Source: Octopus sinensis (Eukaryota). Taken from it: DNA of 64,000 bases. Below, in pieces: positions 695 through 40,312 of this stretch (the first letter of the stretch is position 1; each line of letters opens with the position of its first letter). The position numbers were made by a program, and so were the translations under genes. The notes beneath the pieces are model-generated. The model was given only the letters and a program-made list of their open reading frames with translations, had not been told where the DNA came from and did not search any database. The stretch is taken from positions 144,708,001-144,772,000 of the forward strand of contig NC_043000.1 of NCBI RefSeq assembly GCF_006345805.1, written 5' to 3'.

Positions 695-1626
695 AATGAT
701 AGCTATATGTGAAAGAGAGGCATATGTATTCTACTCCAGCTCTGTTAATTCTTGAATCGCATCTGGATAATATTTATATCTGATATAGGTGCCAGGCCAT
801 AAATAATTTTACACATACACCCATACACATACACAAACATGCACATATATCTGCGCATGTGTTTGCATGTCCATACACGCATACACACGCCCGCACACCT
901 GATGAACACACACACGCGATCAGAAGAGCATGCACACAAACAAACGCAGTCATGCTCACGTATTTACGTACATACAAGCAAGTGTGCGTGAGACGTTTTC
1001 TTCTTCATTATTTAACTAACTTTCGACGGCTATTGTTATACTATCTTACGTTTAAGTTCCCTCAAATCAATGATGAATATAATACGAGAACAAACATGAA
1101 ACTAACGAAAACCAAAAAATGCAATATTTCCTTCAATTTACAGTAAGGTTTCTATACGAAGATTTTTCGGCTTATATGGGTCGTTGATAAAAAGATATCT
1201 TTTTATTCCATTAGTCTGTGTTTGTAATGTTTTTGTATGGTTTGCTTCTTGATTCTTCCATTTCAATTCAATATATATTGTATTTTCTCCTATATAGCCA
1301 TTAGGTATGGATTTAGATGATACCGTTATTCCTTGATAGCATAATAAATTTTAGAAAAAAACATCAGAAATGTCTATTTTTATATAAAATAAAATATGAA
1401 TGTAAGAAACAGAATTCTTCCAATGCAGACCGTATGTATTCACTGTAATACACGAGTTATCATCATCTTGAATACACGTACACATTTATTTTGATGTATC
1501 ATGATGTAGATTTAGATAAGTATTACACATTGAAGCACTATCACACGTAGATATCTACCTACAAGCATGCGTTATGTATATATATATACATATATATATA
1601 ATATATATATATATATACATATATAT

Positions 1627-2491: not shown

Positions 2492-3149
2492 TATATATAG
2501 CATATATTCCATTCTTCCTTGAACGAGCTTGCACATGAAAATCTTTCTAGTTAAAATTCTGCATACCAGTTGCTAGGAAGCTGACATCAATGGACGCACT
2601 TCCCATCAACAGGTCTATTGTGCACCACTCAATATAAGTAACTAGGTTAGCTAGTAAGCCGGGCCTCATATACACATAAACCTATGTATTTAGAAATATA
2701 AATATGTTTGCGTGTGTGGACATATATATACACCAGCGTATATATATACATATTGATGTGTGCTTGTGTGTGCGTGCGCATGTGCGCGTGTGCTCGTGTT
2801 CGTAGAAAGGAGAGGTTTATTTCGACGCAGGAAAGTATATATAGGAGTTGGTTTGGGACTTACAAATGCACCCGAGTTCTAGAACTAATAGTAGAATTTT
2901 AGACTATTAAGAAATTTATTTGAATATCATACTGGTCTCAACAATGCCTTAACTTTTCTTTTGAATTGTACAAATAACAAAGATGAAAAGAATTTGAAGA
3001 GAAAATTCAGTGATACATGATTTTAAAAGATCATGTTTATTCAAATTCAAATATTCAATAAATTTCAGTCTAACAAAAAATAATACAGTTCAAGTTTTAG
3101 ATGAGATTCATGACAATAACACCTGATTGAGAATATGTAGGTTTCAAAG

Positions 3150-3869: not shown

Positions 3870-5915
3870 CTCTATACATCCAGTTTTTCACACCAAACCG
3901 AAAAACGATAAACCATGTTCAGCCTCACTGAAATTGAAATAAAACTGACGGAGTATCGACTTAAATTGATACCATTTCCAAAACCTGGCACAACGGATTT
4001 TATATAAGATAGGGATTTTACAGAAAATTTCTTCTACGCGAATTCCTCTAAAAGAAACTCGAGAAAGATTCATCACTTATGGTAAGCATAGCGAAATTTA
4101 AGATTCCACTGAACAGGAATTGGCACTTGGAGGAATACATAATGCGTTCGTCAACAAGCCCTATAATAACAATATTATAAAATGCAGTGGAATATCCACA
4201 GAAAGGTTCCTGTGTAGTCATACAGAAATTATAGAGAAACGCTTTTAAACAGGTAATGACCAGCAAATATCACAAACCAATGCAGATATAAAAAAAGAAA
4301 ACTGACTAAATTAGTAAATTAATGGACAAATTAGGAAATAACTTCACGAAAACTTTAGGCGCTTGCTTACTTACCGAAAGAGCTAACGATTTGGATTATT
4401 TTATTAATTCTGTGGTAAATACAAATACCTCTTATTGATTTCCAAATGTCTATAAAACAAAAGTGAATAACAGCTTAACCGCATACATCATATGCGAAAG
4501 TTTCGAAGTTATGTTCAATTGTTGCTGGGCGAGGATCTAGCACACTAAGATATAGCTATTTACTTCACCTAAGTTTGAATCTAATATGCAAATCATGCCC
4601 AGTTTTTCAGAAATGACTCTGACTTCTTTAACTATCTTCCGTAGAGAGCAGATTAACAGACTGCCATGGCTAGATTTCACGCAACCAATCTTTAAACAAA
4701 GATTGCATAAGGATTAAGATTAGAAGCAATAGAACTCTATATAATCAAATACTTATAGAATAATCAGGAGGGATTCTCGAAAGAGCTTATACGTGAAATT
4801 GTGTTTGGTGCTAGAAATCAACTAGTTCTTCTATGATAACCTGTATTGCCTACAAATACAGAATATGGTTAAGAGAGCAAAACTTGCGACACTAATAATG
4901 TGATTCCTGGAAGAAAACTTGTCTGGAAAAAGTTTTGATAAACATTTTCAATCCTATTCAGTAGAGAACTCTTGGATGACGACTTCAGATTTTGGCAGAA
5001 AGTAAGGCGAGTATTGCAAGATTCCTTAAATTAATAATCAGTATTTATGAATCGATCCATTTCACTTTGGAAATTAAAGAAAGATAACTTCCTTTCTGGA
5101 CATTCTGATAATTGAAGGAAATGAGATAGTCATAACCGAACTCTAGTACAAGGATACAATGACACACCAAAATTTTCGCCACCTTTTCAACACAAAGAGG
5201 GACATATCATTCTATATGGCATGATATATATTGTAAATACTTACACACACAAGTAGACGACAGACAAGACTAGGATCACTTTGAAGCGAAAATACTACCA
5301 AAACATAATAACACATGCCATAAGCAAAGAAAAAGAATTATTAAGCTCTAGCTTACAGAGACACACCTAAACGTATGGTGAAAACAATGATACTAATATT
5401 CTATTTGTTGCTACAGATAATCCTAGGAACCACATCATGTTACATTCCGCAAAACCTAACCTTACAATTCTAGATCAATCATCGAATATCAGACAAATAA
5501 TCAAAGATTCACAAATTATCAACGGTGGGAAAAACAGCCACTGACTCCGAAGAGACTCACGACAAAAGTGAGATTCATATCAAAGAAAACAATAATGTAG
5601 TTAAGAGACTGTGAAGAATCTAGTGTTGGTGCGTGGGAATTATTTAATGAAAGAATAAATGAAATGTTCAAGAATGAGAAGGAAATAAGTGTGAATGCAT
5701 GCATGAATTGCAAAAGAAAGCGGTCTATGTGCTGCATCACATGGCCACATTAAAAGCGGAATTTTATCGAGAAAAAGAAACGAAAACAACCAACAGTGTG
5801 AGTACAAAAACAGGAAATTAAAGGTTCATTACATACACATGTTCCTTTTAGTAAACGTCTAGACCTTTGTGCAATTGGAAAATTCAAAATTCTCCGTTTA
5901 TGTATTTGTTCTGCA
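3870..5915 (+). mobile_element. Near full-length decayed Penelope-like element (RT plus GIY-YIG pseudogene)
   Basis: Ordered degenerate motifs: KGSCVVI; DSDFFNYLP; FHATNL*TKI..LEAIE; FFYDNLYCLQ; LDDDFRFW (catalytic DD); SIHFTLE..LPFLDIL; FVATDNPRN; HVPFSKRLDLCAIGKFKI. The last two parallel the PLE at 39.3 kb. Confidence 0.8.
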
Positions 5916-20204: not shown

Positions 20205-22885
20205 ATACGGTGGAGTGAAAAAGGTACGTTTTACACAGAATTTCACAATATATTTTCAAGAGTATATATTTTTTGCGAAATCCTTTATAAACAAATGTGT
20301 CAAAATCTGAAGCTCTTAAATTTACATCTTCAAGATATGCAACCCACTTAAAATTGTGAATAATTAGCCTAAAATCAATTTATAACGCCTTTGCCGTTCC
20401 TCATTTTATTTTTTACATTCATTTTTACGAATCGATTTTCGTTTGCGAAATCCCTTAAAAATAAGTGTTAAAATCTTAAGCTCTAAAATTTATACCTTCA
20501 AGCTCGACAACGAACATGAAATTTCGAAATTATATGAAATAAATAGACTTTTCGACTTTTTTTCATTTGATATTTTTTATACGATGTCACTGAATAAATG
20601 CGAAACATGAGGTCTAGATGACACACGCATCAAAACAAAAGTTACGTTGAAACCAATTTATGATACTTGACAAATTTTGATGATAAAAGTAATTAATATT
20701 TCCAGTTTGTTCGAAATAATTCCATGTAACTGAATAATACAAATCATTGTAGGGCATTCCTTTTCGTTCCAGTAATAAAGACAATTAATCTTTTTACGTA
20801 GACGAGAATTAACTACTCACACTCAAATGAAGAATGAAAATTTTGGAAATTTTTTAAGCGACATAATGCTAATTGATTGTAATGTTCAAAATAGCTAAAA
20901 CTAAATAATTTTAATTGACTATTGCTGTAATTGATTATTGTAAGACGTTGAAAATGCGCCATTTTACCGGGGTTACTAAATGCCATTTGGAATGAACATT
21001 TCCCTTCAGAAATAAACCGATGGATATGAAGAAGGTATTTTTGATCAGTGCTGCGATAGTGTATGTCTACTGATGGTAAGTCTATTGGAATCTGCTACAA
21101 TTTCACAACACTTAGTATTTCACATCGCTCTGCAATCGGCCCAAGAAGTCTACGAGGCCCGGTAGTTTTTCCTTCGAGAAAGTTAAGAAGATGACGTGCG
21201 TGGAGCTGATACACACACAAACACAATGGCTTCTTCAATTTATCCCCCAAAAGTTTTATGGTATCTCTTATTAGTCCCGTATTGACTGCAGTACAATCGC
21301 AAACTACAGCTATCCTGTGTTTGCTTACTATCTCATTGTTTTCTATATAATTCATCAGACCAACGGAAATGGCTTTTGCAGAACCTGTTTTAACAGCAGA
21401 GTGATCAAGATAGCGAGACCTAGGTTCTTCTATCAATGCAATGGGTTCTTATTGAATTGTTTTCTTACGAAATGTCTTTCCCATTTGTTCACTTATGAGA
21501 GCTGTGCCCCTACTTCCATCAACATACATGGCAGACAACGGTTTATGTGGCCTACCTTCCTGCTGCATTGATTTACGTTTTGTGGATCAATCCCACTTTA
21601 ACTTCGATGTGGCTATAACACAATAGGTTTCACCAGATGTACTTGCCGTTAAGTCACTGATGACCGAACTTATAAGAGCAGAAGCACGGTCTGATATACC
21701 GATGTGGTCACAGGGCGAAGCTAGTTCTGTGAGTTTCATTCGTTTTATTGGTGTTTTTGAATTTACGCTTTTGCTGACGTCTTTTCGTTTCATCGAAATG
21801 GAATTGGAAAAACTTCATCTTCGCCTGTGGATCCATTTCTAGATTCACTGCTTGATGAAAACGCTTCAATTCAGGCTCCTTTGCTGACGTAGAAGGGCAA
21901 CCGTGATCTGACTGATTCTTTCGAATCTGAACGTTCTGTTTCGATACTGCTTCATCTATTCCGCCAATGATCATTTTTCGATTTGTCCGTTGATCTAGTA
22001 AAAATTCTTGTTCTCGCCGTGGGACTTTTTTGTCACTACTACAACTGCAGTTTTTAACGGAGTTGCACTTGCAACAGGAAATGTCAAATAAATATTGTGT
22101 TTAAGCATATTACACTTTGCTTAAAACGATGGAACACTTTTAAATATTTCTTACAGATTTCAGTAATGATTTTTACTTTAGAGAAACTTTAAAGATTTTC
22201 GGTTTATCTGACTCAATCGTAACACAAGAGAGGGATGCTTTTTGCCAAAGAAGAATGATCTTTTCTGCTACAATCTTGAAAATTTGTTTAATTGAAGGAT
22301 CTTTCTACACTACATAATTTTCTTTTTCCCGTTCAATTAAAACGCCCCTTTTAGCACGTCCTTATAAGTTGGCAAAACTCGCTCATTAAGATCACATTGA
22401 GTACCAAATATTAGGCATTCAATATGATGCGTTATTGGCTTATCAGTCATCAATAAATATAAACAACACTAACTTTAACACGAACATTAATTTTAATACA
22501 ATGGCTTAAAGTCCATATACAAAGCAGAACACTTCATGCACGTACGATGAAAGTTCACACGCGACGACCTTTGACCCGGAACTGAAGAGAATTTCACACT
22601 CTCGTTCGCTCAATGCAAAACATCAAGATTTAGTCAATTCTATCGAAACTTCTTATGTAATCCCTTAACGATACTATATTTACTGTTTTGCAGTCTTCTA
22701 TGAAGAAATCATTATCCGTTACGACTTATAATATATGGAATCCAAACTTCGATCAAAAATAGCGATTTGCAAAATGTTCAGTTGCGTTGCGGAGCCTCAT
22801 AAAATATTTAACAGCTATATTTATGATTATTTCAAGTACAAGACAAAGGTCGAAACTACACAACATTTAAAAATACCACAGAGTA
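20205..22885 (-). mobile_element. Decayed DNA transposon, hAT-like (hATx/hATm-type) transposase
   Basis: Minus strand: VLPTYKDVL; WQKASL; FDISCCKC..NCSC..KKVP..EQEFLLDQRTNRKMIIGGID; CDHIGISDRASALI; IEEPRSRYLDH; VCDCTAVNTG..KPLCLCVYQLH..LEGKTTGP. About 80 bp subterminal direct repeats near 20270 and 20440. Ends and subfamily uncertain. Confidence 0.7.
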
Positions 22886-27700: not shown

Positions 27701-27711
27701 ATAAATGCATA

Positions 27712-27772
<61 letters not shown>

Positions 27773-27775
27773 CAC

Positions 27776-28051
27776 TTGCAGCGTAGAAGGTGTTTATAAG
27801 CTATTTAAGAAACACACAAAACCGTTAGATTCATTTCAACGTTTAAATTTAATTGGTCAAAATATTTTCGTCGCTTTGAGACCGCGACCTGTTCACTGAA
27901 AATATGTTGACAAATTAAATTTAAATGTTGAAGTGACTCTAACGGTTTTGTGTGTTTCTTAAATGGCTTATAAACACCTTCCACTCTGCAATCGTTTTCG
28001 TTCCAGCACACGAGCTCAGATAAAGTCACTCGATATACAAGTATATCTCCG

Positions 28052-28055
<4 letters not shown>
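27776..28055. repeat. Long fold-back cassette (~93 bp arms) between (TA)n tracts
   Basis: 27776-27869 and 27898-27991 are near-perfect reverse complements around a 28 nt spacer. The right arm continues about 60 nt. Confidence 0.95.
27856..27899 (-). ncRNA. Variant hammerhead ribozyme (G3:C8 covariant core)
   Basis: Minus strand: tca-GTGAACA-g-gtcgc-ggtctcaaa-gcgac-GAAA-atat-TT-tga. Stem II 5 bp, palindromic helix III AAATATTT, stem I tca/tga. Confidence 0.6.
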
Positions 28056-28090
<35 letters not shown>

Positions 28091-28113
<23 letters not shown>

Positions 28114-28343
28114 GAATGGATGAATTATCCTTTGTTTACCGTTATCATGGAAAATTCAATAAACAGTTACCAGGGTAGCAAAATTCACGCAAGTAACACG
28201 GATGAAGCGACCTATTCAAAGGTAGAAACTCCGGGTTAATATGCAGTAATTTGTGTAGTATAAGTAAATAAATGGAGTTGAACGCAGGTGTTATTCAAAT
28301 TCTTTTACATCTGCGTTCAACTCCATTTATCTATTTACTTATA
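28091..28343. repeat. Fold-back cassette between (TA)n tracts
   Basis: tataagtaaataaatggagttgaacgcaggtgt (28259-28291) pairs with acatctgcgttcaactccatttat(ctat)ttacttata (28307-28343). The long arm extends to the left. Confidence 0.9.
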
Positions 28344-34989: not shown

Positions 34990-35960
34990 GTCATCCCATA
35001 AACAGTGCGGTTTTTTCAAACGCATGAAAGACGGAGGAAGACGAGATATTCGACCGCCATGGTATCACAATAAAACCAGGTAGGAATTATACTTTGTCCT
35101 TAAGGTTAGTGAAAGTTTTGAGGATTGCAGTTTGATTTTGACAGTTATTTTTTCAAAGCTATAAGAGAAGTGACAAAGGAGCATATTCAGCATATCTTGC
35201 TTTATGAATCCAATAAAAGAAAGTATATTAATGCAGTATATGGCGATCTGACAATAAGTGTGAGCCAGTGTAGCGGTGATTTCAGAAATAACAGCCACAA
35301 ATTACAGCCTAGATGACGAGTCTCGTCCTGGAAGATCTGTAGAGCTGAACGAGAACGTCCTGAAAACCCTGGTAGAACAAAATCCCATCGTAACTGTTAA
35401 GGAACTAGCAGAGAAGCTTGGATTTGGTCATTCAATCATTCATGAACACTTGTGTGCCATCGGAAAAGACAACAAATTGGGCCAATAGGTACCTCACAAA
35501 CTTTCAGAGGCTAATCACGTGGAGTTAGTGAATGTGAGCTCTTCTTTGCTGCCACGTCTCACGAGCGAACATTTTGGGGTCGAATAGTGATTGGTGACAA
35601 GAAATGAGTTCTCTATAAAGTGTGAAGCACCCAAGAGAGTGAGTAGGGAAAGGCAAAACACCAGCATACCAGGCTAAAGAAGGCCTTCACCTACCGAAGG
35701 AATTGATATCTGTTTGGTGGGATATGAAAGGCTTAGTCCACTTTGAACATTACAATCCAAACAAAACGATAACAAAGGAAATCTACTGCGAGAAGCTTGG
35801 GCGGCTTAAGTCAGCACTGTCGCTTCAAGATGAAAGGTGTTCTTCCATCAGGATAACGCCCGGCCACATGCAGCGAGGATGGCATTCGAAAAGCTGCAGC
35901 AGTTTGAGAATTATACCCCACCCACCATGTTCACCTGGCATTGTCCCATGCTAGCCACAG
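34990..35960 (+). mobile_element. Decayed mariner transposon
   Basis: KEHIQHILLYE; LDDESRPGRS (GRP-like); GQ*VPHKL (WVPHEL); RIVIGDKK*VLY; SVWWDMKG; FHQDNARPH; PHPPCSPGIVP (YSPDLAP). Confidence 0.92.
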
Positions 35961-39296: not shown

Positions 39297-40312
39297 ACAC
39301 ACAACCCCAGAAACAGTGAGGCATTCAACACTATTGTTCAAACTCTCCCTTTACAAACTAGAGATCCAAAAATGAACGACATCCTGAAAACACACAAACT
39401 CTTCAAATGCAAAAAACAAGACAAATCGCTTAAGAGACTACTAACAAATGCGAAGCTTTACAAAAACACCACGAAACCAACGGTTGAAAAATGTGGACGC
39501 CCGAACTGTGGAACCTGCCCCAACCTGCTTGAAGGCTCGGATTTCCTTTTCAAACAAGGACAGCGTTTCACAATTAAAACTAGTTTCACCTGTGCCTCTG
39601 AGATCCTAATTTATGTAATAACCTGCTCGGGTTGCGGTCATCAGTACATTAACTTTGAGAAAGAGAATCACTCTGCATAAGGAGCAAATCCGTTTCCCGC
39701 AATACAGACAAATTCCTCTTAGTGAACACATAGAAAAATGTGCAGGTAACATCAAACAAAATTTCACAGTCTTCCCTTTCTACCAGTGCAAAGTCGCAAT
39801 CTCTCAACTAGAACGCTTATATAAAGAAACTTTTTTCATTGAAAAATACAAAACACGTCTTAATATGCACGCTATACCAACTTTTATATTTTTACATATT
39901 ACATCACTGTACATTAATCCCCTACTAAACTAGGTCTTTTTTTAAAACCTGTCTCTTTTATGTACACATATTTATTCCCCACCCAAAACCTGAACACTTA
40001 TCCCCCTTACACACAACAATAACAATAATAACAACCAATTACCTCCCTTTATTTGTCTACTTGTAAAGTCATTCATTCGTGAATTTCATCACACACAACA
40101 TGGACCAAATTTCTTCTTAAGAAAAAATATATATTCATATAAATTAAACATTATATCATGTATAACGATAGCGAAACCGGTCGATATATTAAAACCTATA
40201 TTAAAACCATGTAAGTGTGCGTATTTTCCTTTTTTAATTTCTTATATACATTACAACCCAGCACGTTGGGATAACCGAAATCCCTCTTTTCTGTTACTAC
40301 TACTACTACTAT
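39296..40312 (+). mobile_element. 5'-truncated Penelope-like element (Neptune-type linker plus GIY-YIG endonuclease) inserted in (TA)n
   Basis: TTHNPRN; KCGRPNCGTC (Cys linker); FTCASEILIYVITCSGCGHQYI; LRKRITLHKEQI; SEHIEKC; RLYKETFFIEKYKTRLN. Frameshift at about 39650; 3' UTR carries a half HHR. Confidence 0.9.
40161..40182 (+). ncRNA. 3' half of a hammerhead ribozyme
   Basis: tat-aacg-ata-gc-GAAA-ccgg-TC (palindromic ACCGGT, GUC triplet). The CTGANGA half is absent. Confidence 0.5.

Follow-up and report, generated by a model that had tools for sequence, protein, structure and literature searches.

Hammerhead ribozymes of Penelope-like elements (PLEs) have been described as a minimal type-I class, which includes a variant with U3-A8 in place of the usual 3-8 pair (Cervera and de la Pena 2014, PMC4209133), and these minimal forms cleave slowly (PMC4209133). 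By our count, the 56 representatives published there comprise 53 with C3, three with U3 and none with G3; A9 is invariant among them, and U17 occurs in 24, in one case, from Crassostrea, as part of a UUU triplet. The pair between positions 3 and 8 is part of the active fold, and the natural covariation named for it is U3-A8 (Perreault et al. 2011, PMC3088659). The reversed pair is known from the laboratory as the partly rescuing double mutant C3G/G8C (PMC8495972; PMC11167929), which was also applied to a PLE hammerhead that needs protein (Frangieh et al. 2024, PMC11167929), and G3-C8 is reported, with no data shown, to be more active with G17 than with C17 (PMC3884650). The Anolis PLE enzyme cuts both strands and extends them, and it uses two internal start sites (PMC11167929); PLE insertions have also been described in which copies are inverted and one end carries a tail (PMC8557442). 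No report of a natural G3-C8 hammerhead was found in the passages of literature searched, a coverage that stops short of Lunse et al., Przybilski and Hammann 2007 and the Terminon paper; the available parts of PMC6765202, PMC6155905, PMC11014351, PMC2377424 and one 2026 preprint hold nothing on a G3-C8 core.

The window, i.e., the whole 64 kb stretch of Octopus sinensis DNA analysed here, carries a hammerhead-type motif of the type-I minimal form on the minus strand at 27853–27899. As the original prediction had proposed, the core reads GUGAACA, with G at position 3 and C at position 8 (Table 1). These two positions apart, every core letter of the window copy matches the canonical C3 U4 G5 A6 N7 G8 A9 and G12 A13 A14 A15.1. 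With G and C in place of C3 and G8, the motif counts as a variant and not as a canonical type-I minimal member. A relaxed hammerhead scan of both strands of the window returned this motif as its sole match; an Rfam scan of the window gave no match at the gathering threshold. Stem I had been expected to pair gtca with tgac, and the family stem I is indeed TTTGTCA/TGACAAA, 7 bp long. Two other details of the prediction did not hold. The minus-strand ATATTT at 27865-27860 makes N17 a U and the triplet UUU, which had been called unusual; U17 is common among the published representatives and the Crassostrea one has the same triplet (PMC4209133). The “216 bp” given for the hairpin is the whole span of the self-match (27776-27991) and not a number of base pairs.

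Table 1. Features of the hammerhead locus and its flanks, in window coordinates.
Feature	Position	Strand	Remarks
Core GUGAACA (G3 U4 G5 A6 A7 C8 A9)	27890..27896	-	Sequence reading; G3 = 27896
Extra G between core and stem II	27889..27889	-	Sequence reading
Stem II, 5 bp, G10.1-C11.1 closing pair, 9-nt loop	27870..27888	-	GTCGC (27888-27884) with GCGAC (27874-27870)
G12 A13 A14 A15.1 (GAAA)	27866..27869	-	
Self-complementary AAUAUU (helix III) and U17	27860..27866	-	U17 at 27860, predicted cut site
Stem I 5′ strand remnant, 3 of 7 family nt	27897..27899	-	Junction with inverted arm here
Stem I 3′ strand, one change from family sequence	27853..27859	-	TGAC at 27859-27856
Left arm: 5′-truncated pLTR piece with hammerhead, ending at the short 3′ end	27771..27899	-	
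Right arm: second, inverted pLTR piece, from G12 to the long 3′ end	27898..28055	+	
First 31 codons of element ORF	27963..28055	+	Frame runs into RT-endonuclease protein in longer copies
“Tail” of about 60 nt, on one arm only	27997..28055	+	
(TA)n microsatellite, left flank	27709..27771	.	
(TA)n microsatellite, right flank	28054..28110	.	

Genome counts indicate that the motif is not a chance resemblance: a core pattern in which positions 3, 7 and 8 were left free has 5,519 exact matches and a 27-mer from the arm has 3,929, against none for the reversed-pattern control of either. Among the first 100 of the 5,519 core-pattern matches, 93 are G3/C8, two G3/U8, two G3/G8, two C3/C8 and one U3/C8; none is C3-G8. 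G3/C8 is likewise found in 58 of 65 arms that were picked with the 27-mer, which lies outside the ribozyme, and that extend upstream of stem I. The search patterns favour well-kept copies, and copies inside one family are not independent cases; with these limits, both samples bear out the expectation that GTGAACA is conserved across copies. In the 30 copies nearest the window the core is kept in 20, lost to the junction in five and hit by a point change in five. Within the window's family, designated family A, variants present in at least 10% of copies affect one of 39 core and stem positions (an A-to-G change leaving a U-G pair), four of eight positions in loop II, three of eight in the 5′ flank and four of 44 in the 3′ flank. 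The loop II sequence is not the same across subfamilies, and its length differs between them by one base. Copies that have 95-98% amino acid identity and long open frames carry the motif intact. A G3-G8 core was found in five of 19 loci at the start of the ORF (about three independent, two of the five with a damaged stem II); the ORF-linked family A loci L169, L173, L177, L179 and L181 have such cores, which might represent an older lineage, a stage on the way to the swap, or the outcome of decay.

The hammerhead is a component of the pLTR of a Penelope-like retrotransposon that encodes a reverse transcriptase (RT), a Zn-finger linker and a GIY-YIG domain. The arm continues in frame into the RT-endonuclease ORF, and at two loci (L113 and L114; linker and YVDD read in the L114 translation) an ORF lying about 1 kb upstream of the hammerhead encodes the YVDD motif, the Cx3CxxC linker and the GIY-YIG domain. 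Both membership of the family and linkage to an RT and GIY-YIG ORF on either side are thereby observed directly. One locus, L242, has a hammerhead on either side of the ORF region, with G3 at 3065 and 7426, defining a 4,361-nt unit; its coding region begins 62 nt past the predicted cut site and is in two frames in this copy. The GIY-YIG domain (PF01541) scores above cutoff in the element ORF (E 3.3e-5), and RVT_1 appears below cutoff only, in family B only (see below). A homologue of the element protein is named as an RT-domain protein, the best named homologue being from Octopus vulgaris. Open frames reach 1,042 codons in copies at 95-98% amino acid identity. The Cx3CxxC linker points to the Neptune or Nematis clades, as judged from their description (PMC8557442). 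Copies in the sample stand alone or head to head and derive from a coding element; the head-to-tail tandem arrays of a noncoding unit that mark non-LTR retrozymes were not seen among them.

The window contains remnants of other elements. The segments at 39357-39933 (+) and 40160-40195 are the GIY-YIG end of a different, abundant Penelope-like family with 150 scored matches. Its 3′ region has a GAAA followed by a palindromic CCGG, resembling the 3′ half of a minimal hammerhead; a scan of 20 of its loci found no 5′ hammerhead core. The remnant at 39357-39933 was rejected as a partner of the motif, the arm being matched by none of its 20 loci. The frames at 21095-22100 (-) and 35643-35954 (-) resemble what we take to be DNA-transposon remnants, the second presumably mariner-like.

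A protein search with the element's protein identified two sister families. Family B, at 52-54% amino acid identity, has the core CTGATGC; when the first 100 of its 2,399 matches are read, 97 are C3-G8. Family C has the core TTGAAAA, with U3-A8 in 19 of 20 matches. In a quick tree search with 48 rows, A, B and C share one branch (SH-aLRT 100), A standing beside B+C. Three related families thus present three Watson-Crick pairs at 3:8. Because the relatives carry C3-G8 and U3-A8 at the equivalent positions, the G3/C8 swap is compensatory, as had been predicted; with three lineages this amounts to two changes at 3:8, and the thousands of copies do not add independent cases. An alignment of 11 motifs (10 distinct rows, two family C rows being misaligned at the 3′ end) has the 3:8 pair and stem II paired in all 10 distinct rows, with double-sided changes at six pairs involving 3:8, two stem II pairs, stem I and helix III. 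The share of aligned cells that are paired is 82.9%, versus 26.8-42.4% in slid-partner controls; in shuffle tests of the alignment, two of five measures were not exceeded (150/500 and 500/500). Read by eye, stem I of family C is CTA/TAG. Position 9 is C in the hammerhead of family B, both in the 100 listed matches, where the pattern itself fixed this letter, and in all of the ORF-linked copies that were read (e.g., L148 7364-7411). Set beside the A9 of all 56 published representatives, this is a second unusual core variant, and it hints at relaxed catalysis in the group formed by the three families. A covariance model search over 38 sequence sources produced no further family at E < 0.001, and a metagenome scan for homologues returned two short loci, neither with a usable 3′ region. 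Hammerhead-like motifs with the canonical CUGANGA core occur at L157 near 4701 (+) and L242 near 7946 (+), and apparently belong to other PLE families.

Family A has the parts of a minimal hammerhead: an open, 7-bp stem I on either side of the core, a stem II closed by G10.1-C11.1 and preceded by a single extra base, A15.1-U16.1, U17 and a short palindromic helix III. In folding predictions an intact copy forms stem I with a probability of 0.47-1.0 and stem II with a probability of 0.84-1.0. In the window copy the pairing probability of stem I is 0.0, four bases of its 5′ strand having been lost at the junction and its 3′ strand being captured by the inverted arm; the window copy is therefore predicted to be dead. 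The AAUAUU duplex alone is worth -0.2 kcal/mol, and a two-copy cofold gave swapped stems, not the double-hammerhead form. The dimer idea fits the self-complementary AAUAUU of helix III, through which two hammerheads might pair, each completing the helix of the other. U17 would make G3 tolerable, as G3 could not be trapped by a C17; the reported preference of G3-C8 for G17 over C17 (PMC3884650) suggests that U17 may have eased the swap.

The two arms of the inverted repeat (27771-27869 and 27898-27996) are 99 nt each, 90% complementary and 28 nt apart. The original prediction placed the restart of the inverted arm at GAAAATAT and the duplication junction at the ribozyme; the restart is where it was said to be (27898, plus strand), and the junction is not fixed there, as it varies between copies. 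In 50 head-to-head pairs the 5′ ends of the arms are spread over the whole unit. The 3′ ends occupy either of two positions separated by about 60 nt, with one long and one short end in 47 of the 50 pairs (95 loci); there are thus two alternative 3′ ends, one per arm. Four junctions lie exactly at the cut site (L007, L025, L107 and L209) and are explained by the 7-nt repeat in stem I. A flanking duplication of at least 8 nt was seen in 20 of the 47 pairs with a crude scan, the remainder being mostly in (TA)n; the left-flank (TA)n of the window copy is likely its insertion target. Most copies hold no more than 150-220 nt from the transcript 5′ end. The window hairpin is an ordinary head-to-head insertion product. 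We propose that it arose from two cDNAs joined end to end. In this scheme, the element protein would nick both strands of an AT-rich target, and two cDNAs would be primed from two internal sites downstream of the cut site, at distances of about 90 and 150 nt, by a twin priming with one start site per strand. Both cDNAs would copy uncleaved RNA toward its capped 5′ end before being joined.

Two further repeat structures were noted. Adjoining the hammerhead locus, the window has a short inverted repeat at 28226-28339 (gtaaataaatggagttgaacgcag / ctgcgttcaactccatttatctatttac), probably another head-to-head repeat insertion. Elsewhere in the genome, loci L111-L112 (G000:C1:72549500-72568500) consist of tandem repeats of a roughly 4-kb unit comprising family A arms and a LINE fragment, and look like a segmental tandem duplication.

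The 5′ ends of copies bear no footprint of cleavage. None of 93 arms picked with the 27-mer outside the motif starts at the predicted cut site, and two start within 3 nt of it, which rules out cleavage-defined 5′ ends. As many as 72 of the 93 extend upstream of G3: 16 continue upstream, 44 start 19-29 nt before G3 (with a peak of 17 at -23) and 12 start closer to G3. Eleven begin inside the motif and eight further down than the cut site. The template of nearly all sampled copies was uncleaved RNA. An ATG lies 21 nt before G3, and 91 arms reach it, 63 of them without genomic upstream sequence. The AG preceding this ATG is retained in 34 of the 63, and in 25 of these 34 the next letter is a G in place of the genomic C, with unrelated sequence beyond it (binomial p 6.5e-13 at 17% G, a few of the rows being near-duplicates). 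The extra G is likely a copied cap, which would put the transcription start 23 nt upstream of G3. LINE-1 offers a precedent for a cap copied as an extra G; our literature search on cap copying found no report. A branch-point-like ACTAAC, a pyrimidine run and a CAG stand just upstream of the motif at L243 (about 4790-4820) and L114 (about 770-800, minus strand), and this splice-acceptor-like stretch overlaps the inferred transcription start. The arm is present in contigs of eight runs guessed to be RNA, from which its starts, ends and strand are not readable, and the same contigs contain no GT..AG joint ending at the acceptor-like stretch. Because the copies have a single extra letter in common and these contigs showed no splice joint, a very short spliced first exon is disfavoured as the source of the 5′ pile-up.

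The interpretation that we favour, with a probability of roughly 0.6, is that G3-C8 represents a natural compensatory core swap in a PLE pLTR hammerhead, one that would allow slow self-cleavage assisted by dimer formation or by protein, the window copy being a predicted-dead by-product of head-to-head insertion. Judging from the pattern of substitutions, the self-cutting fold is likely kept by selection. The wider claim, that this would be the first natural G3-C8 hammerhead, active as a dimer or with the element protein, in an octopus retrotransposon group that has tried out three Watson-Crick pairs at the catalytic 3-8 position, and that its copies record capped, uncleaved mRNA, twin priming and the cap as an extra G, is offered tentatively, at somewhat under even odds. 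The fold might instead be retained for some function besides cutting, for example as a binding or folding element for the PLE's own protein near the starts of reverse transcription, with cleavage nil or irrelevant. We consider this unlikely, at about one chance in four, while noting that nearly all sampled copies were templated by uncleaved RNA, that catalytic mutations left in vitro insertion by the Anolis element unchanged and no Anolis reads ended at the cut site (PMC11167929), that other PLE clades thrive without hammerheads (PMC8557442), and that family B has C9. What speaks against it is that the 3-8 pair belongs to the active fold (PMC3088659) and has been kept through two double changes along with U4 G5 A6, GAAA and U16.1, as selection on catalysis predicts.

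The possibility that G3 and C8 arose independently by decay and became fixed in a master element whose ribozyme had already died, their pairing being coincidental, appears improbable. All three families have a Watson-Crick pair at 3:8, the variation between family A subfamilies avoids core and stems while loop II changes in both sequence and length, and young copies keep the motif; against these observations stand the single origin seen for G3-C8 and the G3-G8 cores at ORF-linked loci and in two of the first 100 pattern matches. Less probable still is a MITE-like or otherwise structural hairpin that looks like a hammerhead by accident, or a motif whose letters are held by a small reading frame. 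Thousands of copies with 99-nt inverted arms would suit the former and the ATG 21 nt upstream of G3 the latter. Each arm turns out, though, to be a truncated copy of a single RT-linked sequence; junctions vary, the ends are unequal, and linkage to the RT-endonuclease ORF largely refutes the MITE-like notion. A small frame over the motif was rejected because the one-base difference in loop II between subfamilies would shift any frame, and the long ORF begins downstream of the motif.

Evidence for the 3-8 pair has so far come from crystal structures, laboratory double mutants and the U3-A8 change found in nature; adding a natural reversed pair, with C-G and U-A in the sister families, would complete the comparative proof. 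Searches based on CUGANGA would be shown to miss whole high-copy families. Families A, B and C would supply three matched natural ribozymes for asking whether PLE hammerheads are selected for cutting, and the 5′ pile-up with its extra G, together with the rule of one long and one short end, leads to testable predictions on the integration of the element.

Set against the described PLE hammerheads (PMC4209133), the octopus motif shares the pLTR position, the extra base between positions 9 and 10.1, G10.1-C11.1, a short palindromic helix III, the frequent U17 and the occurrence of opposite-strand pairs, and the core of family C, UUGAAAA, is that of S. mansoni(4). It departs from them in having G3-C8, a G as the extra base where the consensus is H, and a stem I of 7 bp. 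With the natural U3-A8 variants (PMC3088659; PMC4209133) it has in common covariation at the 3-8 pair, and it differs in that the pair is reversed and that three pair types occur among related elements. The octopus copies resemble Neptune and Nematis PLEs (Craig et al. 2021, PMC8557442) in their C-terminal GIY-YIG, CX2-5CxxC linker, (TA)n targets, inverted truncated copy at the 5′ end and tail at one end, but, unlike those elements, they are mostly 150-220 nt transcript 5′ ends. The Poseidon element of Anolis (PMC11167929) shares the layout, in which the hammerhead lies close to where the ORF begins and there are two internal start sites and a tail, the latter about 60 nt in the octopus family compared to the 30-40 bp described. 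The core letters of the Poseidon double mutant are the same as those of family A; G3/C8 was engineered in the former, whereas in the octopus it is the natural state of a high-copy family.
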